DNA of 64,000 nucleotides from Pseudomonadota bacterium (GTDB lineage: Bacteria > Myxococcota > JACRCW01 > JAFGSX01): assembly GCA_043821645.1 (NCBI GenBank), contig JBDRCO010000087.1:224001-288000 (forward strand). Reading direction: 5' to 3'. The notes beneath the pieces were generated by a model. It saw only the letters and a program-made list of their open reading frames with translations. It did not search any database and was not told where the DNA came from. Positions 53,478 through 64,000 of the stretch are shown here, one piece after another. The stretch's first letter is position 1. The number at the start of each line of letters is the position of its first letter. The position numbers and the translations under genes are program-made.

Positions 53478-55253
53478 ATGAGCGGCGTCACATCCACATT
53501 CAAGGTCGGCCTCGTCGTCACCATGGCGACCCTGGGCTGGCTCTTCTGGTTCTTCAACACCAGCAAGAATCAGCTCGGCGGTGCCGACACCATCGGCGTT
53601 CACGCCTACTTCAAGACCGCGGCCGGTCTGAGCGCCAAGAGCAAGGTCACCGCTGCAGGTCTCGATGTGGGGCAGATCGCGCTCATCAGCCTGGTCGATT
53701 TCGACCGCATCCCCGACGAGGTGGCACGCTGCGAGCAGGAAGATGCGCTGCGCCAGCAGGGTCTGTACACCCCGCCCAAGAAGGGCGAGCTGCGCGAGAC
53801 GGCCGGCTGTCGTCGCGGCCACTGGGCGCGGGTGGACATGCGGGTGAAGCAGAGCTTTGCCCTGCACAGCGACGCCAAGGTCGAGAAGACCACCGCCGGC
53901 CTCCTGGGCAGCAACATGCTCGAGCTGGCTCCAGGCGATCCGGTCAAGCCCGTACTGGCGGACGGCTCCGAGATCATCAACGTCAACTGGATGAGCGGCA
54001 TGGAGTCGCTGTTCAGCTCGGTGGGAGACCTCGAGGGCGACATCCAGAGCATCGTGCGCAACATCAATGGCATCACCGCCAGCATCAACCAGTTCATGGG
54101 CCCCGACCCGACCGGCGCCGCACCCATGCCCAGCTTTCCGACCCTGGTGGCGGAGTTGCAGGCGCAGCTCGAGCAGGTCACCGCCGACGTGGGCAAGACC
54201 GTGCGGCAAGTCAATGGCATCCTCGGCGACAATCGCCAGAACGTGAGCGAGGTGATCGCCAACCTGACCCGGGTCAGTGAGGAACTCAAGGCCATCGCGG
54301 ATGGCACGGGCGAGAGAGGCGCCGCCTTCAACACGGTGGTGGCCAACGTGGCCGACGTCTCCGAGCAGCTGCGCGGGGTGGTCTCGGAGCTGCGCTCCCT
54401 CATCGGCGCTGCCGAGGCTGCCGAGGCTGAGGGTGAAAGCGGCAGCGCCAGCGAGCAGCTGGCAGGAGCCCGCAAGCAGGCCACAGGGATCCGCGAGACC
54501 GTCGAGCGCCTCAACGAGTCCCTCGATGCCCTGTCCCGGGTCACCACGCGCATCGCCGACGGCGAGGGTACGGTGGGGCGCCTGCTCACCGACGACAAGC
54601 TGGCGCGGGACATCGAAGACGCGGTGGAGGGCGCGGGCGAGATCGTGGCCGGGATCAACCGCCTGGATACCCACGTGCAGGTGCTGGCCTGGTACAACTT
54701 CAACCAGGGCACGGCCCACGACGGGCTGAGCGTGCGATTGCAGCCGAGACCCGACAAGTACTACCTGGTCGAGCTGATGAACGATCCGCGGCGGGTGCCG
54801 CTGTACACCTGGACCACCACCACCACCAGCGATCCCCTGCACAGCCCCGGCGGCGGCACCACGACCTACCTGGAAGAAGTCGCGCAGATGACCGACGACT
54901 TCCGGCTGACCGCGATGTTCGCCAAGATGTGGGGGCCGCTCACCCTGCGCGTGGGCATCATCGAAAACTCCGGCGGCGTTGGCGCCAACCTGTGGTTCTG
55001 GGAGGACCGCATTCGCCTGCGCACGGACCTGTACCAGTTCGGGTACTTCGACAAGCTGCCACGTTGGCGCAGCTACTTCGAGCTCGAGCCCATCGAACAC
55101 GTGTTCGTGATCGCCGGCGTCGACGACGTGCTCAACGCCTGGGATCAGAACTTCGTGTACAACCCCAATGGCTGGGATTACTTCGCCGGGGCTGGCCTCG
55201 GCTTCACCGACGACGATCTCAAAAGCCTGCTCACCATCCTGCCCACGCCATGA
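53478..55253 (+). CDS. MCE/MlaD family protein with long helical region and C-terminal beta-rich domain
   Basis: FKVG + TM; AAGL..SKV..AGLDVGQI; GLLG..LELAPG; DGEGTVGRLLTD; alternating strands ending YFAGAGLGFTDDDLK. Confidence 0.88.
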   Translation: MSGVTSTFKVGLVVTMATLGWLFWFFNTSKNQLGGADTIGVHAYFKTAAGLSAKSKVTAAGLDVGQIALISLVDFDRIPDEVARCEQEDALRQQGLYTPPKKGELRETAGCRRGHWARVDMRVKQSFALHSDAKVEKTTAGLLGSNMLELAPGDPVKPVLADGSEIINVNWMSGMESLFSSVGDLEGDIQSIVRNINGITASINQFMGPDPTGAAPMPSFPTLVAELQAQLEQVTADVGKTVRQVNGILGDNRQNVSEVIANLTRVSEELKAIADGTGERGAAFNTVVANVADVSEQLRGVVSELRSLIGAAEAAEAEGESGSASEQLAGARKQATGIRETVERLNESLDALSRVTTRIADGEGTVGRLLTDDKLARDIEDAVEGAGEIVAGINRLDTHVQVLAWYNFNQGTAHDGLSVRLQPRPDKYYLVELMNDPRRVPLYTWTTTTTSDPLHSPGGGTTTYLEEVAQMTDDFRLTAMFAKMWGPLTLRVGIIENSGGVGANLWFWEDRIRLRTDLYQFGYFDKLPRWRSYFELEPIEHVFVIAGVDDVLNAWDQNFVYNPNGWDYFAGAGLGFTDDDLKSLLTILPTP

Positions 55254-56386
55254 GGACCATCGTCGCCACCCTGTTGCTTGCGTGGGTTCTCGGCTGTGCC
55301 CAGTCCAAGCCGCGACCTGCACCCGCGGCGCCGCGTTGCATGCGGCTGGACCGCGTGCAGGGCATCACCGTCGAGGTGCCCTGCTCGGGCAGCGACCAGG
55401 ATCAGGACGGGCTCGACGATGCCGCGGACCTGTGCCCCACCGCGCCCGAGAGCGCCAATGGTCAGGACGACCTCGACGGCTGCCCGGACCCCGACGCCGA
55501 TGGGGACCAGCTGCGCGACGACCTCGACGACTGCCCGCACCAGGCCGGGCCTGCGCCCACGGGTTGCCCGATCCTGGATGCCGATCAGGATGGCTTCGTC
55601 GATCACCTCGACTCCTGCCCGCTGGATCCCGAGGACTTCAACGGCATCGAGGATCAGGACGGTTGCCCCGACGGCGCCGACGTGGTGGTGGTGGCGCGCA
55701 ACGACACCCTGTACCTCAAGCAGCCGGTGCACTTCCTCAAGAAGAGCGCGATGCTGCTCCCCGACTCCAAGGATCTCCTGGACCGGGTTGGCACCCAGCT
55801 CAAGCGCCACGAGGATCGCATCGCGCGCATTCGCGTGGTCGGGCACGCCGACAGCCGCGAGGTCAGCGGCAAGAAAGCCGAGGCCCTGTCCCGGACTCGC
55901 GCCCGCATCGTGGCGCGCTATCTCATCTTGCAGGGCATGGACAAGAAGGTGTTCGAGACCGAGGCCCTGGGCAGCAAGAAACCCGCCAGCAAGGGGCGTC
56001 GCCCGCGCGATCGCGAGAAAAACCAGCGGGTCGAGCTGCTGGTGACTCTCAAACCTGCCACCGTGCCCGAGCTGGCCGCCTTGCCCGCACCCGCTGCGGT
56101 CGACGCAGGCGCTGCCGACGCCGTCACGGCCACGGCCGCGACCACCACGACGACGACGACGGGCGGGACAACGACCACCGCATCCACCGGGACGGGTGGT
56201 GCGGATGCGGGTCAGGCAGGCACCGCGACCACGACGACGGCCACCACCACCACCACCGCGACCACGACGACCACCACCACGTCCAGTGCGGCCGAGCCCG
56301 GCGTCCAGCCCTATAGCGAGGAAGAGAACTGGGACGAGGAGTTCCTCGACCAGGATTGGGACGAGAAGTTTCTTCAGAAGGATTGA
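55250..56386 (+). CDS. OmpA-domain lipoprotein with thrombospondin type 3-like repeats
   Basis: Lipobox VLGC; DxDxDGxxDxxDxCP repeats; GHADS..LS..RA..V..N.RVE; ATGA overlap with the MCE gene. Confidence 0.9.
   Translation: MRTIVATLLLAWVLGCAQSKPRPAPAAPRCMRLDRVQGITVEVPCSGSDQDQDGLDDAADLCPTAPESANGQDDLDGCPDPDADGDQLRDDLDDCPHQAGPAPTGCPILDADQDGFVDHLDSCPLDPEDFNGIEDQDGCPDGADVVVVARNDTLYLKQPVHFLKKSAMLLPDSKDLLDRVGTQLKRHEDRIARIRVVGHADSREVSGKKAEALSRTRARIVARYLILQGMDKKVFETEALGSKKPASKGRRPRDREKNQRVELLVTLKPATVPELAALPAPAAVDAGAADAVTATAATTTTTTTGGTTTTASTGTGGADAGQAGTATTTTATTTTTATTTTTTTSSAAEPGVQPYSEEENWDEEFLDQDWDEKFLQKD
56125..56283 (+). repeat. Thr-rich low-complexity tract (ACC/ACG runs)
   Basis: Several poly-Thr runs in the OmpA protein tail. 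Confidence 0.85.
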
Positions 56387-56467: not shown

Positions 56468-57751
56468 TTACTTTTTCTTTGCGGGCTTGCCCTTCTTGGC
56501 GCGCAGCTCGGCCGCAGCCTCCTGGATCTCGGTCAAGTCGCGCTGCATCTCGCTCCAGCCGTACCACAGGGCATAGTCCGGGTTGGCGTGGAAGGTGCCC
56601 TGGAAGGCGCGCATGCGGTGCTCGAGGAACATCACGAACAGCGTCTGCTCGATGACTGTGGGCGCGTCGTGGAAGGCCAGCAGGTCCGGGTAGGCGCTGG
56701 CATAGCCCTTGGGCTTGGGCAGCACACCGTCCCGGTACAGGCCCGCGACCTCACGGATGGCCTCGGCCATCAAGTGGTCGACGTGGCGGATCATGTCGTC
56801 GCCCTTTTGCAGCTCACCCTTGGCGAAGTCCGGAGCGTGGCACTGGGCGCAGGTGTTGAGCATCTTGTCGCGGCCGGCCTGCCAGCTCGCCTGGTCCAGG
56901 CGCGCCAGGTCGGCGGCCTTGACCACCTCGAGGCGGCCGGTGGGCTTGCCCGTGGGGTCGAGCACACCCAGCCCCATGAGGATGGTGGCGCGATCCGCCG
57001 CCCATTGCTTGTCCTCGGGCATGGGCAGGCGCACGGCCAAGAAGCCCCAGGGCGCCCGCACCTCGTGATCGCCGCCCTGCATGTGGCAGGTCTGACAGGT
57101 GGGCGCCGCGGTCTCCTTGGGCAGGATGCCGTTCTGCTTGAGCAGGGCGCGCACGCCGTGCTTGCTCCCCGAGTACATCTCCCACTGCGGGTGATCGAAG
57201 CCCATGTGGCAGGTCTGGCAGGCCTGGGGCTGCTGCGCCTCGAGCACCGAGAAGGTGTGGCGGGTGTGGCAGGCATCGCAGGAAGCGGTGCCGAAGCCCG
57301 GGCCCGTCTTCTTGAGTTCGGCGATCTCGGCCTCGCTCTTGAGGCCGATCTTGTGGCAACCGCCACAGCCCTTCATGCCGTCGCTGAGGGCAGCAGGCAG
57401 GCCATGGGTGGTGGGCATGGCCTTCATGGCCGCCCAGGCGACGGCGTGCTTGCCCTTCTTGTACTGGGCCACGCGCTCCTCGTGACACTGGGCACAGGTC
57501 TCGGGAGTGGGGATCTGTGCCTTGCGGGCGTCGTCGGCACTCTTGTGCGCGTCACCGTGGCAACCATCGCAACTCACGCCATTCTTGCTGTGTTTGCTCA
57601 GCTTCCAGTCCCCCACGATGCCTGGCGACTGCTTCTGGTGGCACTGCACGCAGACATCGGCGCTTGCCTTGACTTTCTTCTTGGTGGCGGCGTGTGCCAG
57701 TGGAGACCACAGCAGGGCCGTGGCGACGAGGATGACGACTGTTTTTGGCAT
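56468..57751 (-). CDS. Octaheme cytochrome c, hydroxylamine-oxidoreductase-like family
   Basis: Signal peptide; eight CxxCH motifs; CHTRHTFS, CHMGFDHPQWEMY..SKHG, FHANPDY..WYGW. Confidence 0.9.
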   Translation of the reverse strand: MPKTVVILVATALLWSPLAHAATKKKVKASADVCVQCHQKQSPGIVGDWKLSKHSKNGVSCDGCHGDAHKSADDARKAQIPTPETCAQCHEERVAQYKKGKHAVAWAAMKAMPTTHGLPAALSDGMKGCGGCHKIGLKSEAEIAELKKTGPGFGTASCDACHTRHTFSVLEAQQPQACQTCHMGFDHPQWEMYSGSKHGVRALLKQNGILPKETAAPTCQTCHMQGGDHEVRAPWGFLAVRLPMPEDKQWAADRATILMGLGVLDPTGKPTGRLEVVKAADLARLDQASWQAGRDKMLNTCAQCHAPDFAKGELQKGDDMIRHVDHLMAEAIREVAGLYRDGVLPKPKGYASAYPDLLAFHDAPTVIEQTLFVMFLEHRMRAFQGTFHANPDYALWYGWSEMQRDLTEIQEAAAELRAKKGKPAKKK

Positions 57752-57843
57752 GTAAATCTCCTCCGGTGTGGGTGTGGATCCGGCGGCGAAAGAGTCCCGT
57801 GCTCTCTGCTCATCCTCAACGGTGAGGCCTGAGCGGAGTTCAC

Positions 57844-57861
57844 CAGTTCTGTGTAGAACTG
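57844..57861. promoter_or_regulatory. Perfect palindrome, candidate operator
   Basis: CAGTTCT-GTGT-AGAACTG, 2 nt from the FNR box. Confidence 0.5.
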
Positions 57862-57863
57862 CC

Positions 57864-57877
57864 TTGATTCAGATCAA
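57864..57877. promoter_or_regulatory. FNR/CRP-family binding box upstream of the octaheme cytochrome gene
   Basis: TTGAT-TCAG-ATCAA, an exact TTGAT-N4-ATCAA match. Confidence 0.8.
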
Positions 57878-57891
57878 GTGTGCGGGAGTCC

Positions 57892-58260
57892 CTAGCGCGC
57901 GCGTCGCGATCTCCGGCGTCGGCGGTGGGTGTCGAGTTCCTCGGGTTTGCGGCCTCCGAGCAGGCGCGGCGCCAGGCGACCCAGGAAATCGTCTGCTGCC
58001 TCGAGGCCGCTGCTGGAGCGGAGCTGGAGCTGGACCACCACACCGGCCACGTCCAGGGCCAGGCCCACGGCCATCAGCACGCCGAACAGGCCCGCATGCT
58101 CCCGCACCGGCATCGCCAGGGCCACAGCCAGGATCACGCACAGCGCACCACCGCCGAGCAAGGTCCAGGATACGACCCGCAACCTCCGTCGCGCGCGCGC
58201 CTGCTGGGCGGCCAGCTCGGCCTCGTAGCGATCGGGATCACCTGCCGCGGAGATCATCAT
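57892..58260 (-). CDS. Small two-TM hypothetical protein
   Basis: Two hydrophobic helices; fills the gap before the rpsP promoter. Confidence 0.55.
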   Translation of the reverse strand: MMISAAGDPDRYEAELAAQQARARRRLRVVSWTLLGGGALCVILAVALAMPVREHAGLFGVLMAVGLALDVAGVVVQLQLRSSSGLEAADDFLGRLAPRLLGGRKPEELDTHRRRRRSRRAR

Positions 58261-58328
58261 GGGGGCACGCTACCCGCTGCCGGGGCCCGGCCGCAAGCGA
58301 GCCTGTCTGCCCGGCCGCATCTTCGCGT

Positions 58329-58357
58329 TTGACAGGCCCTGTGGGATCCGCTAATTG
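58329..58357 (+). promoter_or_regulatory. Possible sigma70-type promoter of the rpsP operon
   Basis: TTGACA-N17-TAATTG. Confidence 0.5.
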
Positions 58358-58438
58358 CACCCTCTTTGTCGGCCCTTGAGAGCCGTACGAGACGTGTGCA
58401 GACCGGACTGAGATCCGGGTGCGATGAGGAACAGATCG

Positions 58439-58699
58439 ATGGCAGCCAAGATCCGTCTGGCGCGCGCTGGCGCAAAAAAGAAGCCCTTTTACCGCATCAT
58501 CGTCACCGACAGCCGCAGCAAGCGGGACGGCGATTTCCTGGAGCAGGTCGGGACCTACGACCCGCGCCCGGTGCCGCCGGCCATCAATCTGAAGGTGGAT
58601 CGGATCAAGCACTGGCTGTCGCACGGCGTGCAGGCTACCGACACCGTCAAGCGCCTGTTCAAGCAGCACGGTCTGGCCGATCCGCCGGCCCAGGCCTGA
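58439..58699 (+). CDS. rpsP: 30S ribosomal protein S16
   Basis: KIRLARAGAKKKPFYRIIVTDSR..RDG; GVQATDTV. Confidence 0.97.
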   Translation: MAAKIRLARAGAKKKPFYRIIVTDSRSKRDGDFLEQVGTYDPRPVPPAINLKVDRIKHWLSHGVQATDTVKRLFKQHGLADPPAQA

Positions 58700-58881
58700 A
58701 GCGCGTTGCACGGGGGCCCTGCGGGTGAAGCTCGCCGGGCGATGCCGGGGAGGATCCCGTCGCCAGGTCGCGCAGGTCGTGGCCGAGGTCGGGACAGGGG
58801 TACGCGGGGCGCCCGATTCTTCCCGAAAAGCTCCGGGTCTCGCGACAGCGGGTGCATGCTGCTGCGAAAGCCGAGGTCGTC

Positions 58882-59115
58882 ATGAAGGAGCTCATCGAGT
58901 ACATCGCCCGCGCGCTCGTCGACAGCCCCGACGCCGTGGAGGTGAGTGAGCTTGGCGAGGAGCAGGCCAGCATGATCACCCTCAAGGTCGCTCGCGAGGA
59001 CCTGGGCAAGGTCATCGGCAAGAAGGGCCGCACCGCCAAGGCCATGCGCACCATCCTCAGCGCGGCCTCGACCAAGCTGCGCAAGCGATCCAGCCTGGAG
59101 ATCATGGAGCCCTAG
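58882..59115 (+). CDS. khpA: KH-domain RNA-binding protein
   Basis: MKELIEYIARALVD; DLGKVIGKKGRTAKAMRT; rpsP-rimM synteny. Confidence 0.93.
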   Translation: MKELIEYIARALVDSPDAVEVSELGEEQASMITLKVAREDLGKVIGKKGRTAKAMRTILSAASTKLRKRSSLEIMEP

Positions 59116-59149
59116 CAGTGCCGTCCTGTTCCCGGCGCCCGGCGCGTCC

Positions 59150-59695
59150 GTGACCCCCCCCAGCCCGAGCATTCCGGTGGCGCGTATCGTGCGGGCCCAT
59201 GGCATTCGCGGCGAGATGCGCGTGCTTCTGTACAACCCGGACTCGACCCTGCTGCGCCGAGGCCTGCAGCTCGAGGTCTACGCCCGGGATGGCGCCGTGC
59301 ATGCGCACGTGATCCAGCGCCTGCGCCCCCAGCAGCAAGACCTGCTGCTGACCCTCGACGGCATCGACAGCCGCGACGCGGCCGAGGCCCTGCACGGTGC
59401 CGAGCTGCGTGTGGCGCGTGCCGCCCTGCCGCCCACCGACGACGACGAGTACTACGCCATCGACCTCGTGGGTTGCCGTGTGGTCGATGCCCAGGGCACC
59501 GAGCTGGGTCAGGTGAGCCAGGTCAGTGACAACGGAGCGCAGGACCTGCTGCACGTCGAGGCCAGCGGGGGCGAGTGGCTGCTGCCGCTGGTGGACGCCT
59601 ACGTCGACACCGTGGATCTGGACGCGCGCACCGTACGCGTGAGGCAGGTGGCGGAGCTGATCGCCCTGGGCCAGGCTCCGTCGACCAAGGACTAG
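59150..59695 (+). CDS. rimM: Ribosome maturation factor RimM
   Basis: AHGIRGE; DEYYAIDLVG; GAQDLL. Confidence 0.95.
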   Translation: MTPPSPSIPVARIVRAHGIRGEMRVLLYNPDSTLLRRGLQLEVYARDGAVHAHVIQRLRPQQQDLLLTLDGIDSRDAAEALHGAELRVARAALPPTDDDEYYAIDLVGCRVVDAQGTELGQVSQVSDNGAQDLLHVEASGGEWLLPLVDAYVDTVDLDARTVRVRQVAELIALGQAPSTKD

Positions 59696-59700
59696 GCGCC

Positions 59701-60450
59701 ATGCGCATCGACCTGCTGTCGCTGTTCCCGGACATGTTCGACGCCGTGCTCGATGCGAGCATCCTCGGCCGCGCCCGGCGCGCGGGTCTGGTCGACCTGC
59801 GCTGCACCGACATCCGTCTGTTCACCGACGACAGGCACCATACCGTCGACGACACGCCCTATGGCGGCGGCGCTGGCATGGTGCTCAAGATCGAGCCTGC
59901 GCTCACCGCCATCGAAGCCGTGGTCGGCGACGAGGGAGGGCCTCCCGACGGGCGCGTCATCGCGCTCATGAGTGCCAGCGGCCATCGCTTCGAGCAGGCC
60001 GCGGCGCGCGAGCTCAGTCTGACACGGCATCTGGTGCTGCTGTGCGGGCGCTACGAGGGCGTGGATGCGCGACTTGCGGCCTACGTCGATCGCGAGCTGA
60101 GTATTGGCGACTACGTGCTCACCGGCGGCGAGCTGGCGGCCATGGTCGTGGTCGACGCCGTGGTGCGGCTGTTGCCCGGAGCCCTGGGCAACGACCAGAG
60201 CGCGGTCCACGAGTCCCACACCGGATACAGGCTCGAGCACCCGCACTACACCCGACCGCCCGTGCATCTGGGCGAGGCCGTGCCCGAGGTGCTGCTGTCC
60301 GGCGATCACCGGCGCATCGCCCAGTGGCGACAGGCGCAGTCGCTGCACCGCACCCGCGAAGCTCGCCCGGACCTGCTGCGGGATCATCCCCTGACCAGTG
60401 ACGAGATCGCCCTGCTGTGCGGGCGCGAGCCACGCAGGGGTCGCCGGTGA
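59701..60450 (+). CDS. trmD: tRNA (guanine-N1)-methyltransferase
   Basis: VDDTPYGGGAGMV; CGRYEGVDAR; SIGDYVLTGGE; PHYTRP. Confidence 0.98.
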   Translation: MRIDLLSLFPDMFDAVLDASILGRARRAGLVDLRCTDIRLFTDDRHHTVDDTPYGGGAGMVLKIEPALTAIEAVVGDEGGPPDGRVIALMSASGHRFEQAAARELSLTRHLVLLCGRYEGVDARLAAYVDRELSIGDYVLTGGELAAMVVVDAVVRLLPGALGNDQSAVHESHTGYRLEHPHYTRPPVHLGEAVPEVLLSGDHRRIAQWRQAQSLHRTREARPDLLRDHPLTSDEIALLCGREPRRGRR

Positions 60451-61007
60451 CGGTTCCTCGCCTGGCCATCGCCCTGTGCCACTACCCCGTGCTGGACCCC
60501 CGGAATCAGGTGTCCTGCTCGGCGATCACCAACCTCGACGTGCATGACATGGCGCGTTCTGCCACCACCTATGGCGTCGATGCGGCCTACGTGGTCACGC
60601 CGGTGGCCAAGCAGCGCGAGCTGGTCGAGGCCATCCTGCAGCACTGGCTGGGCGGCACCGGTGGCGATCGCTGTCCGGATCGCAGCACCGCCTTCAAGAT
60701 CCTGCACCCCGCGGGCTCCATCGAGGAGGTGCTGGCGCTGGAGGCCGTAGCAGCCGACGGGCAGACCCCGACCGTGGTGGTCACCAGTGCGCGCCACGAC
60801 CCGGCCATCGTCGAGGTGGCCACGCTGCGCGAGCGCCTGCAGCGGGAGTCCGCACTGATCCTGTTCGGCACCGCGCGCGGCCTGGCGCCCTCGGTGCTGG
60901 AGCGCGCCGATCTGCGCCTGGCTCCGCTCGAGGGCACGGGCAGCTACAACCACCTTTCGGTGCGAGCGGCCATCGCCATCTACCTGGACAGGCTGCGCGG
61001 GCGCTGA
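60447..61007 (+). CDS. SPOUT-family RNA methyltransferase (trmD-associated)
   Basis: HYPV..ITNLDVHDMARS..TYG; FGTARGL; YNHLSVRAA.AIYLDRL; GTGA overlap. Confidence 0.88.
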   Translation: MTVPRLAIALCHYPVLDPRNQVSCSAITNLDVHDMARSATTYGVDAAYVVTPVAKQRELVEAILQHWLGGTGGDRCPDRSTAFKILHPAGSIEEVLALEAVAADGQTPTVVVTSARHDPAIVEVATLRERLQRESALILFGTARGLAPSVLERADLRLAPLEGTGSYNHLSVRAAIAIYLDRLRGR

Positions 61008-61108
61008 ACCTGCGCGGCAGCTTTCTGGAGAGCCTGCCTCACCCATGTTAGCGTGATGACGCGACCCTTCGTGCGTCGACGGAGCCTGCGCTCCGGACGC
61101 CGGGAGCA

Positions 61109-62773
61109 GTGGTGACGGCACAGCGATCACGAGCCCTGGAACTGGCGGCGGTGGGCCTGGGGCAGGCCGGTGGCAACCTGGCGTCGGAGTTCTGGCGCCT
61201 GGGCTACCGCGCTGTGGCCCTCAACACCGCGCGGGTGGACCTGCGCTCCCTGGACCAGGCCGAGAGCACGATCCCGTCGACCCAGCGCCTGTACATCGGC
61301 CTCGACGATCTGGACGGTGCGGGTAAGGATCCGGCATACGGTCGAGCCTGCGTCGAGGAGCATGCCGACGCCATCCGCGAGCTGGTCAAGCGCGAGCTGG
61401 ATAACTGCGACGCGGTCTTCCTGTGCGCCGGCCTGGGCGGAGGCACAGGGTCCTGCCTCGCCGAGCTGTGCCAGGTGCTGGCGCCCCTGGAGTTCCCCCT
61501 GGCGGCCCTGTGTACCCTGCCCAGCCAGGCCGAGAGTGGCATCGTCAAGGTCAACGCGGTGCGCGCGGCGAGCAGCCTGGTCGAGCTGCCCCTGCTGGCG
61601 CGGATCGTCGTCGACAACCAGCGCATCGTCGAGGCCCATGGTGAACTCGACCTGATGAACTACTATCCGCAGATCAACCGCGACATCGTGGCGCCGCTGC
61701 ACGAGCTCAACCAGCTCAACAGCATCGAGGATCTGCACAGCCTGCGTTCCTTTGACGGCGAGGACCTGCGCAAGGTGCTGCTGTCCGGCGGCGTGGTGGT
61801 CGTGGGCAGCGAGATACTGGACATGAGCGGCCCGCCCATCACCGCCCAGGAGATGGAGCGCAGCGTGCGTCGGCTCCTCGACGGTGGCACCCTGCTGGCC
61901 GTGGGCCTGCCCCTGGACAAGGTGGCTTACCTGGGTGTGGTGCTGCTGGCGCCCGAGCGCTTTCTCAAGCAGACCCCGGCCCGGGACCTCGAGGAACTCA
62001 GCGAGCAGCTCAAGCAGCAGACCGGCGGCGGCGCCGTGTACCCCGGCCTGTACGTGTCCGAGGCCGAGAAACCCGTGTTGCACCTCGTGGCGGGCAGCCT
62101 GACCCTACCCGAGCGCGTGCGCAGCCTGCTCGTGACGGCCAAGGCCGAGGGCCATCTGCTGGCCGACAAGATTCGCGAAGAGATCCCCCCTCTAGATGTG
62201 GGAGATCTATCAAAAATACAATTATATCGAGTACCTCCACCGAAGCGTCGAGGTTCAGTGCCGCCTGCCAGCGGGCCCGTGCGCTCGACTCCAGCACGTC
62301 CGGCTCGAGGTGCTGCGGCCAAGCCCAGGCTCGAGGATCTTTCTCCCGTGCTGTCGGCACGGGTGGAGTTGCCGGTCGCGGATCTGGAAGAGATCCTGGA
62401 CGCGCCACCCCACACGATGGAGTCAGCCGAGCCCGCTCCGGCGCCCCCCAAGCGCGAGGTCACCCACGTCGGGGCCGAGCCCAAGCGGCCCAGCAGCGAC
62501 GAGCCGCCCGACGACCTGCAGGCCTACTACGGTGAACTCATTGACCGTTTTCGGGGGGCCCCGGGCCGCAAGGAGCGCGAGGAGGTGGCGCGGCGATTGA
62601 TCCGCGACGCCCGCTCCGTGGATGTCGACGTGCGCGCTCACGCAGTGTGGGCCATGGTCAGCCTGGGTGGCCGTGGCTTCAAAGCAGCGCTGCAGCAGGC
62701 GGTCCAGGACGAGGACGAGGAGGTCCGCAACCTGGCCCAGGACGGTCTGCGCCGACTGGGGAACGCGAGCTGA
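61109..62773 (+). CDS. Divergent tubulin/FtsZ-family GTPase with Pro-rich linker and C-terminal HEAT repeats
   Basis: GLGQAGGN, ALNT..DL, GAGKDP..G, AGLGGGTGS, LP..E, VDN, FDGEDL; tail VRAHAVWAM..LG / DEDEEVRNLAQDGL; start GTG 61109 or 61112. Confidence 0.88.
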   Translation: MVTAQRSRALELAAVGLGQAGGNLASEFWRLGYRAVALNTARVDLRSLDQAESTIPSTQRLYIGLDDLDGAGKDPAYGRACVEEHADAIRELVKRELDNCDAVFLCAGLGGGTGSCLAELCQVLAPLEFPLAALCTLPSQAESGIVKVNAVRAASSLVELPLLARIVVDNQRIVEAHGELDLMNYYPQINRDIVAPLHELNQLNSIEDLHSLRSFDGEDLRKVLLSGGVVVVGSEILDMSGPPITAQEMERSVRRLLDGGTLLAVGLPLDKVAYLGVVLLAPERFLKQTPARDLEELSEQLKQQTGGGAVYPGLYVSEAEKPVLHLVAGSLTLPERVRSLLVTAKAEGHLLADKIREEIPPLDVGDLSKIQLYRVPPPKRRGSVPPASGPVRSTPARPARGAAAKPRLEDLSPVLSARVELPVADLEEILDAPPHTMESAEPAPAPPKREVTHVGAEPKRPSSDEPPDDLQAYYGELIDRFRGAPGRKEREEVARRLIRDARSVDVDVRAHAVWAMVSLGGRGFKAALQQAVQDEDEEVRNLAQDGLRRLGNAS

Positions 62774-62971
62774 TCTTCTCAGGGCGGTCGGCCCGCCCCT
62801 GTGCTGGCCGGCACGGGTCCGGCCAGCATTCACCGTGGCAGCAACGGCGTTGCCCCCGGGTGGCAAAAAGGTCCGGTCGGCATTCACCCTGGCAGCCGAG
62901 ACCTCCACTCTCCTTGACAAAGCCGGATGCTTTTGCTGTGTTGCGCCCTTCCGCGATCCCGGGAGATGCAG

Positions 62972-63337
62972 ATGAACGTCGTCGACAAGATCACCCAGAG
63001 CCATTCCCGCACTGATCACCCGGCTTTCCGCACCGGTGATACCCTGCGCGTCCACTTCAAGATTCGCGAAGGCGACAAGGAGCGCGTGCAGGTCTTCGAG
63101 GGCGTCTGCATCGGCCGTCGTGGCCGTTCCGGCGTCGAGAGTATCACGGTCCGCAAGACCTCCTTTGGTGTGGGCGTCGAGCGCATCTTCCCCCTGGCCA
63201 GCCCCCGCATCGACAAGATCGAGGTCGCGGCTCGCGGTATCGTGTGCCGCGCCAAGCTGTACTACCTGCGCGGCCGTACCGGCAAGGCGGCCCGCATCCG
63301 CGAGCGCATCCAGGCCCGGCCCGTCAAGGGCGCCTGA
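62972..63337 (+). CDS. rplS: 50S ribosomal protein L19
   Basis: [42 protein letters not shown]. Confidence 0.97.
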
Positions 63338-63423
63338 GCCCTCATCCTCCCTCGCCCTGTCCCATCCGGCCTCTCCAGAAGAAGCGCTGTGCGCAGATCT
63401 CGAGCTGTGCCTGCCGATGATCG

Positions 63424-63452
63424 TTGACACATGCGCGCCTCGGCACTAAGAC
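63424..63452 (+). promoter_or_regulatory. Possible sigma70-type promoter of gdhA
   Basis: TTGACA-N17-TAAGAC. Confidence 0.45.
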
Positions 63453-63694
63453 CCTGGACCGTCGCTGACGTCGACGAGCGCGTGCGCGCGCCTCGTCGGA
63501 GCCCAGATGGCGCTGCGTCCGACAATCGGCCCGGCTGCACCTCCCTCGCATTCGCGTCACTGTGTCCCGTGGCTGTTCGCGTCGTTCAGGGCGCCCGGCC
63601 CTGGGGGGACCACCTCAACCTGGGGCACCGGCGGTAACCACGCCGGCCCCCGCGCGGCGCGCTGACACGGTCGGTCGTCGCTCCAAGGATGCCC

Positions 63695-64000
63695 ATGTAC
63701 AACCTCGACAAGTTCATGACCGAGCTGGAGCAGCGCAACCCGTCGCAGCCCGAGTTCATCCAGGCCGCGCGCGAGGTCGTCGAGTCCATCATCGACGTGG
63801 TCAACCAGAACCCGGCCTACGTCGGCGGGCGCATCCTCGACCGCATCACCGAGCCTGACCGCGCCATCCTGTTCAAGGTGGAGTGGGAAGACGACAAGGG
63901 CGAGCTCCACGTCAACAAGGCCTACCGCGTGCAGTTCAACAACGCCCTGGGGCCCTACAAGGGCGGTTTGCGCTTTCATCCCTCGGTGACCCTGGGCGGG
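63695..64000 (+). CDS. gdhA: Glutamate dehydrogenase, NADP-type (truncated by the window end)
   Basis: MYNLDKF..RNPSQPEFIQA; RVQFNNALGPYKGGLRFHPSV. Confidence 0.93.
   Translation, partial: MYNLDKFMTELEQRNPSQPEFIQAAREVVESIIDVVNQNPAYVGGRILDRITEPDRAILFKVEWEDDKGELHVNKAYRVQFNNALGPYKGGLRFHPSVTLGG

Follow-up and report, generated by a model that had tools for sequence, protein, structure and literature searches.

We found that the 64,000-nucleotide stretch of DNA analysed here (the window; positions 224,001 to 288,000 of contig JBDRCO010000087.1, from the Myxococcota assembly GCA_043821645.1) encodes at positions 61109 to 62773 a protein of the tubulin/FtsZ superfamily that keeps all nucleotide loops and the acidic residues of loop T7, followed by a long linker and a HEAT-like end module. 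The explanation that we favour, and hold to be reasonably probable, is that this protein forms a GTP-driven, TubZ-like filament encoded by the chromosome, whose tethered HEAT-like module would dock a partner, a cargo or an anchor. The initial annotation of this DNA, made from its letters, had described a divergent tubulin/FtsZ-superfamily GTPase fused to a HEAT-like module, and the Pfam scores, the motifs and an AlphaFold2 model all agree with that description. The features of the gene and of its product are as follows, with model confidence given as the predicted local distance difference test (pLDDT).

61109..62773, + strand: the whole open reading frame (ORF), 554 amino acids and a stop codon, no internal stops
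61142..61633, + strand: Tubulin/FtsZ GTPase domain (PF00091), residues 12-175, with loops T1-T6
61154..61177, + strand: T1 loop GLGQAGGN, residues 16-23, invariant in 24 sequences
61430..61453, + strand: T4 signature GLGGGTGS, residues 108-115; G108, G110-G112, G114 and S115 invariant in 118 sequences
61715..62128, + strand: C-terminal (activation) domain of the TubZ-like type (PF22453), residues 203-340
61751..61771, + strand: T7 loop FDGEDLR, residues 215-221; D216, D219 and R221 invariant in 118 sequences
62111..62176, + strand: long C-terminal helix, residues 335-356, which aligns with the last helix of TubZ
62183..62230, + strand: conserved acidic motif after the helix, residues 359-374, consensus LPxLDLGxxExxELFR; L362, L372 and R374 at least 90% conserved; pLDDT 60-83
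62246..62497, + strand: disordered linker of 84 amino acids, residues 380-463 (P 16, A 13, R 9, S 8, E 8)
62498..62761, + strand: HEAT-like five-helix tail, residues 464-551, about 88 amino acids, at the extreme C-terminus; 116 bits with the hidden Markov model (HMM) of the tail

Translation probably begins at the second GTG (61112), which would give a protein of 553 amino acids, because the database copy P0002 has 553 amino acids, the Atlas record begins at residue 2, and GGGAG lies 5 nucleotides (nt) upstream of 61112.

The core matches the Pfam Tubulin domain at E 2.8e-17 and 64 bits (cut-off 33; 66 bits in the whole-genome scan), and TubZ-like_C at 34.3 bits (cut-off 26). Among 24 family members, the Tubulin domain was detected in 24/24 and TubZ-like_C in 17/24. 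The GTPase loops read from the sequence at the outset are all present: T1 G18-Q-A-G-G-N23, T2 N39-T40...D44, T3 G70-A-G-K-D-P75, T4 G110-G-G-T-G-S115, T5 L137-P138...E142, T6 D169-N170 and T7 F215-D-G-E-D-L220, with the correction that T2 and T5 each have three intervening residues and not two. In the alignments of 24 members and of 118 homologues (the latter with 40-63% identity to the query), the residues GLGQAGG, N39-T40-A41..D44, D69-G-A-G-x-D74, GLGGGTGS, P138...E142-S143, D169-N170, N190 and D216-G-E-D219-x-R221 are invariant or conserved to at least 90%. The two aspartates in the T7 loop of an archaeal FtsZ1 have their counterparts in D216 and D219, in an alignment that also includes RepX. 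The core match is far beyond chance, because the Pfam scores exceed their cut-offs and the motif residues are invariant or nearly so in both sets of homologues. The AlphaFold2 model, built with the 118 homologues, has a mean pLDDT of 86, above 90 in the core, and displays the two-domain fold of the superfamily, in which a GTPase domain and an activation domain are joined by a core helix. GTP binding, polymerisation and polymerisation-dependent hydrolysis are most likely, to judge from motif invariance and the predicted fold. In FtsZ, tubulin and TubZ, the T7 acids act only across the filament interface and are needed for inter-subunit catalysis; their invariance in this family thus argues for polymerisation.

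Beyond the core, the model contains the helical segment, the Pro/Arg/Glu-rich linker and the HEAT-like helical tail that had been proposed from the sequence, with pLDDT below 50 over residues 400-463 and about 97 over the five-helix bundle at residues 470-549. Across 140 full-length members, the linker is 37-476 amino acids long (median 115) and is composed of 16.8% Pro, 13.7% Ala, 9.5% Ser, 8.6% Arg and 7.6% Glu, and the end of the tail lies a median of 2 residues from the C-terminus. A tethered adaptor would show a variable linker and a conserved end module, as found here. The tail is HEAT-like, of the HEAT/PBS type: residues 502-552 match HEAT_2 (PF13646) at 23.8 bits, below the cut-off of 27.7, and 13/24 family members match this domain at E <= 0.001. 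Structure matches of the tail to HEAT_2 segments in the Atlas have template modelling (TM) scores of 0.69-0.76, and the sole notable non-tubulin sequence matches in the PDB are alphaRep artificial chains (E 2.9e-4). The analogy first drawn with the tubulin-binding TOG domains of eukaryotes is not supported. A TOG domain comprises about six HEAT repeats in about 220-250 amino acids, whereas this tail has five helices in about 88, and no TOG/CLASP model is among the Pfam matches.

Within the family, the tail accompanies the core almost everywhere. In 118 of the 120 homologues listed, the tail HMM is found at the extreme C-terminus, the two proteins without it being 404 and 446 amino acids long, and at 60/70 genomic loci with a core match the tail lies in the same ORF. 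The remaining ten loci comprise six cut by a contig end (L032, L043, L048, L057, L067 and L072), two with the tail just downstream in a shifted frame (L028 and L059), one with a weak tail (L041) and one with none (L034). The tail frame at L028 (7761-8927) and L059 (6414-7871), both in metagenome-assembled genomes (MAGs), differs from that of the core ORF and overlaps its end, through either a frameshift introduced by assembly in the GC-rich linker or a genuine break. When residues 1-380 were modelled in complex with residues 464-554, using family alignments, the scores were 0.00 and 0.03 against a mark of 0.32, which speaks neither for nor against binding between the two parts.

Among the tubulin-superfamily proteins of bacteria, FtsZ functions in division, TubZ and PhuZ position plasmid and phage DNA, and BtubAB is a further member; to our knowledge, members with known roles are few. 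The closest PDB sequence matches of the window protein are RepX/TubZ (4ei7, E 6e-14), archaeal FtsZ1 (9v7v, E 6e-14) and CetZ1 (4b46, E 2.6e-13), followed by other FtsZs (E 1e-12 to 1e-6), c-st TubZ (E 1e-3) and beta-tubulin (E 8e-3). Fold comparison of the AlphaFold2 model ranked TubZ 4ei7_B highest (score 37.0, root-mean-square deviation 2.8 Å over 343 residues), then TubZ-Bt 2xka_E (35.9), CetZ2 4b45_A (34.0), CetZ1 (32.5), c-st TubZ (30.6), FtsZ (29.2-27) and tubulin (27.2). Foldseek returned the folds in the same order, and the filament model 3j4s aligns as far as model residue 364. Structure neighbours in the Atlas are mostly phage clusters (TubZ-like_C/TubZ_C), then archaeal CetZ_C clusters, then FtsZ.

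We placed the family in two trees, whose rows comprised family members, distant representatives, seven plasmid/phage TubZ-like proteins, Thermoplasmata homologues, Myxococcota FtsZs and CetZ-like proteins (3-4 rows across both trees, two from haloarchaeal plasmids and one from an archaeal MAG); neither tree included tubulin, BtubAB, PhuZ, artubulin or the classical TubZ/RepX of pBtoxis/pXO1. In the quick tree (80 rows), the family forms one clade (21 rows, support 98) within a 60-row TubZ side that is separated from FtsZ and the CetZ-like rows with support 97. The careful tree (41 rows) recovers the family as monophyletic (100/100), gives a 16-row wider clade support of 91/96, and groups the family with the plasmid/phage TubZ-like side against the CetZ-like proteins and FtsZ (89/93). 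Long branches and compositional bias were flagged in both trees. The family is a well-defined clade that is TubZ-like by its modelled fold; it is probably TubZ-like by descent too, with moderate support for the deep placement.

Three known groups offer points of comparison. With TubZ/RepX, the type III partition proteins of Bacillus and the Clostridium phage c-st, the family shares the TubZ-like_C match, a long last helix followed by a flexible C-terminal region and its side of the trees; it differs in being chromosomal, in its 21-23% identity, in the lack of a Pfam TubZ_C match at E <= 0.01 in the window protein and in the folded HEAT-like end domain. CetZ resembles it as a chromosomal stand-alone paralogue beside FtsZ, with PDB matches to CetZ1 as strong as those to RepX. 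The CetZ-like protein of Haloferax pHV4 has exactly the same T1 loop, GLGQAGG. The suggestion that CetZ and TubZ typically have GQ in T1 is only partly borne out: it is true of this CetZ-like protein, but the plasmid TubZ-like proteins compared here vary at this position (GLGMGGS, GLGQYGG, PIGQGGG). In contrast to CetZ, the window protein is bacterial, has no CetZ_C match at E <= 0.01 and carries a disordered linker and a HEAT tail, and its family stands apart from the CetZ-like rows in both trees (89/93 and 97, with the long branches flagged above). BtubAB of Prosthecobacter is a bacterial tubulin-superfamily polymer with a separate partner, BtubC, made of TPR repeats (an alpha-solenoid); the likeness is one of general design, and the HEAT-like module of the window family is fused in cis, whereas BtubC is separate.

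On the explanation that we favour, the protein would bind GTP and assemble head-to-tail into filaments, and insertion of the T7 loop (D216/D219) into the nucleotide pocket of the neighbouring subunit would set off hydrolysis. The Pro/Ala-rich disordered linker of variable length would extend from the polymerising core, and the HEAT-like end domain, as a putative adaptor, would recruit a partner or anchor the filament. The acidic motif that follows the last helix may, like the TubZ tail, make contact with the next subunit. By analogy, this layout would copy that of FtsZ, which also has a polymerising core, a variable disordered linker and a conserved C-terminal binding element, on a TubZ-like core and with a folded adaptor in place of a short peptide. 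As leading guesses for its role, the filament would position a cellular structure or, like CetZ, act in shape or motility; TubZRC-type DNA segregation and a role in the divisome are less likely.

The gene is a chromosomal paralogue beside a canonical ftsA-ftsZ pair and is not the division FtsZ of this genome. In the assembly, which is 94.7% complete, two genes match PF00091: the one studied here and one on another contig at 168 bits. The latter has the Tubulin and FtsZ_C domains, ends in ...DIPAFLRR... and directly follows ftsA, and so provides the separate ftsZ that the initial annotation had asked for. Among 21 relatives, all four carriers of the family have FtsZ as well as the tubulin-like paralogue (4/4), and 16 others have FtsZ alone.

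A word-indexed search returned 303 proteins at E <= 0.001, the best non-self matches being 55-57% identical. Their source annotations are "cell division GTPase FtsZ", "HEAT repeat domain-containing protein", "tubulin-like protein CetZ" or hypothetical, and their named sources are MAGs of Myxococcota or "Deltaproteobacteria". An exhaustive profile search of 1.84 billion representatives gave 7641 matches at E <= 0.001, 1155 at E <= 1e-10 and 256 at E <= 1e-30. In a scan of one genome per species we found 117 relatives, 80 of which were kept. The 71 family-level loci (L003-L073) are all titled as metagenome-assembled genomes and are labelled mostly as Myxococcota, Polyangiales, Polyangiaceae, Sandaracinaceae or "Deltaproteobacteria", with few otherwise. 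Of 401 sampled Myxococcota genomes, 26 carry the family at E <= 1e-30, a count that is a floor, since the first look was stricter. The matches cluster in a small number of families: by family code, the genomes matched were 1/1 for f1, 2/2 for f2, 14/20 for f6, 5/11 for f18 and 1/1 for f20, and 0/172 for f11 and 0/67 for f15.

In the window, the gene lies within the rpsP-rimM-trmD-rplS cluster, as the initial annotation had stated; the neighbours, identified with Pfam, share one strand:

58424..58699, + strand: rpsP (ribosomal protein S16), which opens the cluster
59150..59695, + strand: rimM
59575..60450, + strand: trmD, ORF as listed; the true start is probably later
60417..61007, + strand: S-adenosylmethionine-dependent RNA methyltransferase (PF09936), ending 101 nt upstream of the tubulin-like gene
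62927..63337, + strand: rplS (ribosomal protein L19), beginning 153 nt after the tubulin-like gene

From this core-operon position, a housekeeping role had been proposed. The proposal fails, because among the 72 loci compared the ribosomal-cluster setting is limited to the window and L003, the sole other genome of the same taxonomic family (57-59% identical), and the neighbours elsewhere differ by lineage. Of the other 19 relatives, 11 have trmD in the 1.5 kb upstream of rplS, and 7 of these have rimM there too. The PF09936 methyltransferase gene adjoins the family gene elsewhere only in L003 (whose contig is also L104), and no homologue of the PF09936 protein of the window was found in the 1.5-kb flanks of rplS in the 21 relatives. 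All-against-all clustering of ORFs from the 72 loci revealed no widely shared neighbour. The neighbour clusters that rank next after a Ser/Thr kinase (LeuA-like, RuvX, an epimerase and others) occur at 7-11 loci and are ordinary metabolic or repair genes; these neighbours, the kinase included, represent lineage-level synteny only.

Several properties of the family would suit a type III (TubZRC-like) motor of DNA segregation that derives from a plasmid or prophage, is now domesticated or a remnant, and has an unlinked TubR-like adaptor bound by the tail or the linker: the nearest solved folds are those of plasmid TubZ, Pfam detects TubZ-like_C, the Atlas neighbours are mostly phage clusters, and the trees put the family on the TubZ side. 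We consider such an origin of its present function unlikely. In TubZRC systems tubR is expected directly upstream of tubZ, and a small ORF indeed lies directly upstream of all seven plasmid/phage TubZ-like genes that we fetched (7/7), whereas the RNA methyltransferase gene occupies this place in the window, and no small conserved neighbour was detected in the 71 loci. The absence of a tubR/centromere partner nearby, already remarked upon from the sequence, was upheld: there is no TubR-like small ORF, the 101-nt upstream spacer contains no repeats that could form a tubC-type iteron array, and the only repeat, present in two copies of 27 nt, is downstream. No close match was found in 72,556 plasmid records (the best covers a third of the protein at 35% identity) or in 50,697 phage records, which contain remote relatives only. 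The GC content of the gene equals that of its flanks, the gene is single-copy in 22/26 carriers (and in the others is in two pieces of one gene), and identity declines with taxonomic distance, from 59% within the same family to 49-50% within the same class and 41-49% elsewhere in the phylum. Still less credible, in our view, is an accessory or alternative division protein, that is, a second FtsZ that would co-assemble with the Z-ring or regulate it. The superfamily and the logic of T1-T7 are shared with FtsZ, many members are annotated as "cell division GTPase FtsZ", and FtsZ is present beside the paralogue in the four carriers mentioned above, yet the window protein reaches 62.8 bits with the ftsZ model TIGR00065 against a cut-off of 295.2 and has no match at E <= 0.01 to FtsZ_C (PF12327), nor to CetZ_C (PF21011), TubZ_C, Tubulin_C or Tubulin_2 (PF13809). 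Unlike the FtsZ of the same genome, it has no C-terminal FtsA/ZipA-binding peptide, in line with the initial annotation, and ends (...LRRLGNAS) in the 88-residue folded domain. It also lies outside a division cluster, and none surrounds the family gene at any of the 71 loci, as judged from the neighbour clusters examined. The FtsZ fold is more distant than that of TubZ, and FtsZ is separated from the family in the trees.

The protein might instead be a GTPase switch that stays monomeric or dimeric, with the HEAT tail folding back on the core as its regulator. HEAT repeats can serve as intramolecular regulators, and polymerisation is not known for some divergent relatives in the superfamily; for the window protein itself, it is deduced from motifs and fold. 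Without an active site formed between subunits, it is hard to see why the T7 acids and all the nucleotide loops should be invariant, and a 13-fold variation in linker length is unusual for a fixed fold-back contact, so that we regard this switch as improbable. Some observations do weigh against the filament with a tethered adaptor that we prefer. The case for its polymerisation is built on conserved motifs and the predicted fold. No partner gene is conserved alongside the family gene, the commonest neighbour, the Ser/Thr kinase, being found at 17/71 loci. The conserved residues of the tail largely coincide with the structural consensus of HEAT/PBS-type repeats, and their conservation may reflect folding constraints rather than a binding surface. 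Finally, the support for the TubZ side is moderate (89/93), on long branches and in a tree without tubulin, BtubAB, PhuZ and artubulin.

The core is also found with other partners. Representatives that match it at 160-330 bits and are devoid of the HEAT tail bear different ends: C-terminal modules of the PilM/FtsA-like (P0157), Cds6_C NTF2-like (P0174, P0177, P0181), HD-GYP (P0197) and ParA-like (P0214) types, or an N-terminal glycosyltransferase (P0219), and some members of this wider clade have plain N-terminal extensions of 50-150 amino acids. For ten distant relatives, exact look-up returned no names other than "HD-GYP domain-containing protein" and "cell division GTPase FtsZ". In both trees these groups interleave with the HEAT family, and the presence of other C-terminal modules on the same core fits an exchangeable effector end. 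In P0157 (818 amino acids) and P0266 (850 amino acids), both from metagenome contigs, a Tubulin and TubZ-like_C core is joined to an actin-fold ATPase of the PilM/FtsA type. This fusion is rare (two clusters, 95% identical, with 7 sequences), and the nearest cores again bear HEAT_2; it could be real or a read-through of gene calling.

Other features of the region were also recorded. A scan of positions 58000-64000 found no promoters or terminators, Rfam gave no match at E <= 0.1 over 57500-64000, and the spacer before rplS, folded as RNA, is not of unusual stability (z -0.75). This spacer, between the tubulin-like gene and rplS, holds the 27-nt direct repeats (62816-62842 and 62870-62896), which are 89% alike and 54 nt apart. 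Their 19-nt core occurs with one mismatch at two further sites of the genome (contigs C2 and C5), with 0 matches for a reversed control, and they may belong to a small dispersed repeat. Upstream of the ribosomal cluster are a multi-haem c-type cytochrome on the - strand (56468-57751; Multi-haem_cyto, E 4e-27) and an OmpA-family protein (54929-56386). Two ORFs, at 58725-58949 (74 amino acids, between rpsP and rimM) and at 57768-58379 (203 amino acids, before rpsP), have no Pfam or NCBIfam match and may be small conserved genes or spurious ORFs of a GC-rich genome. One DNA run contains 84% of the sampled words of the tubulin-like gene, and other runs contain smaller shares; no RNA run is listed as containing it, which says nothing on its expression.

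The initial annotation had suspected an undescribed family with a built-in module. No curated family model fits the window protein, and full-text searches found no paper describing the family, although supplementary trees and tables may hold unnamed members; the family is better seen as a TubZ-like clade than as one apart from all known clades. In the parts of their texts that were available, Santana-Molina et al. (2023; PMC9871819) contains 0 mentions of words beginning with Myxococc or Deltaproteo, Makarova and Koonin (2010; PMC2875224) covers families of the Tubulin_2 type and not a HEAT-tailed one, and in Makarova et al. (2024; PMC10936438) HEAT and TubZ appear in unrelated connections.

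Taken as a whole, the family may represent an undescribed bacterial cytoskeleton of uncultured Myxococcota, a chromosomally inherited TubZ-like cytomotive filament that, with its tethered HEAT adaptor, would position or shape some structure of the cell apart from the division ring or a plasmid, and which would form part of a larger clade (256 clusters at E <= 1e-30) with swapped effectors; we put this broader proposal forward tentatively, at slightly less than an even chance. No carrier that we found is cultured, which is why the family has escaped experiment; it is approachable by heterologous expression. If the proposal is true, a vertically inherited chromosomal TubZ-like protein with all its catalytic motifs retained, without the TubR/centromere machinery and having gained a folded docking module on a flexible tether, would be a new cellular use of tubulin-like filaments in bacteria. 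It would also be a natural test of the core-linker-adaptor principle debated for FtsZ, and the exchange of C-terminal modules across the wider clade suggests that evolution has drawn on this principle on many occasions.

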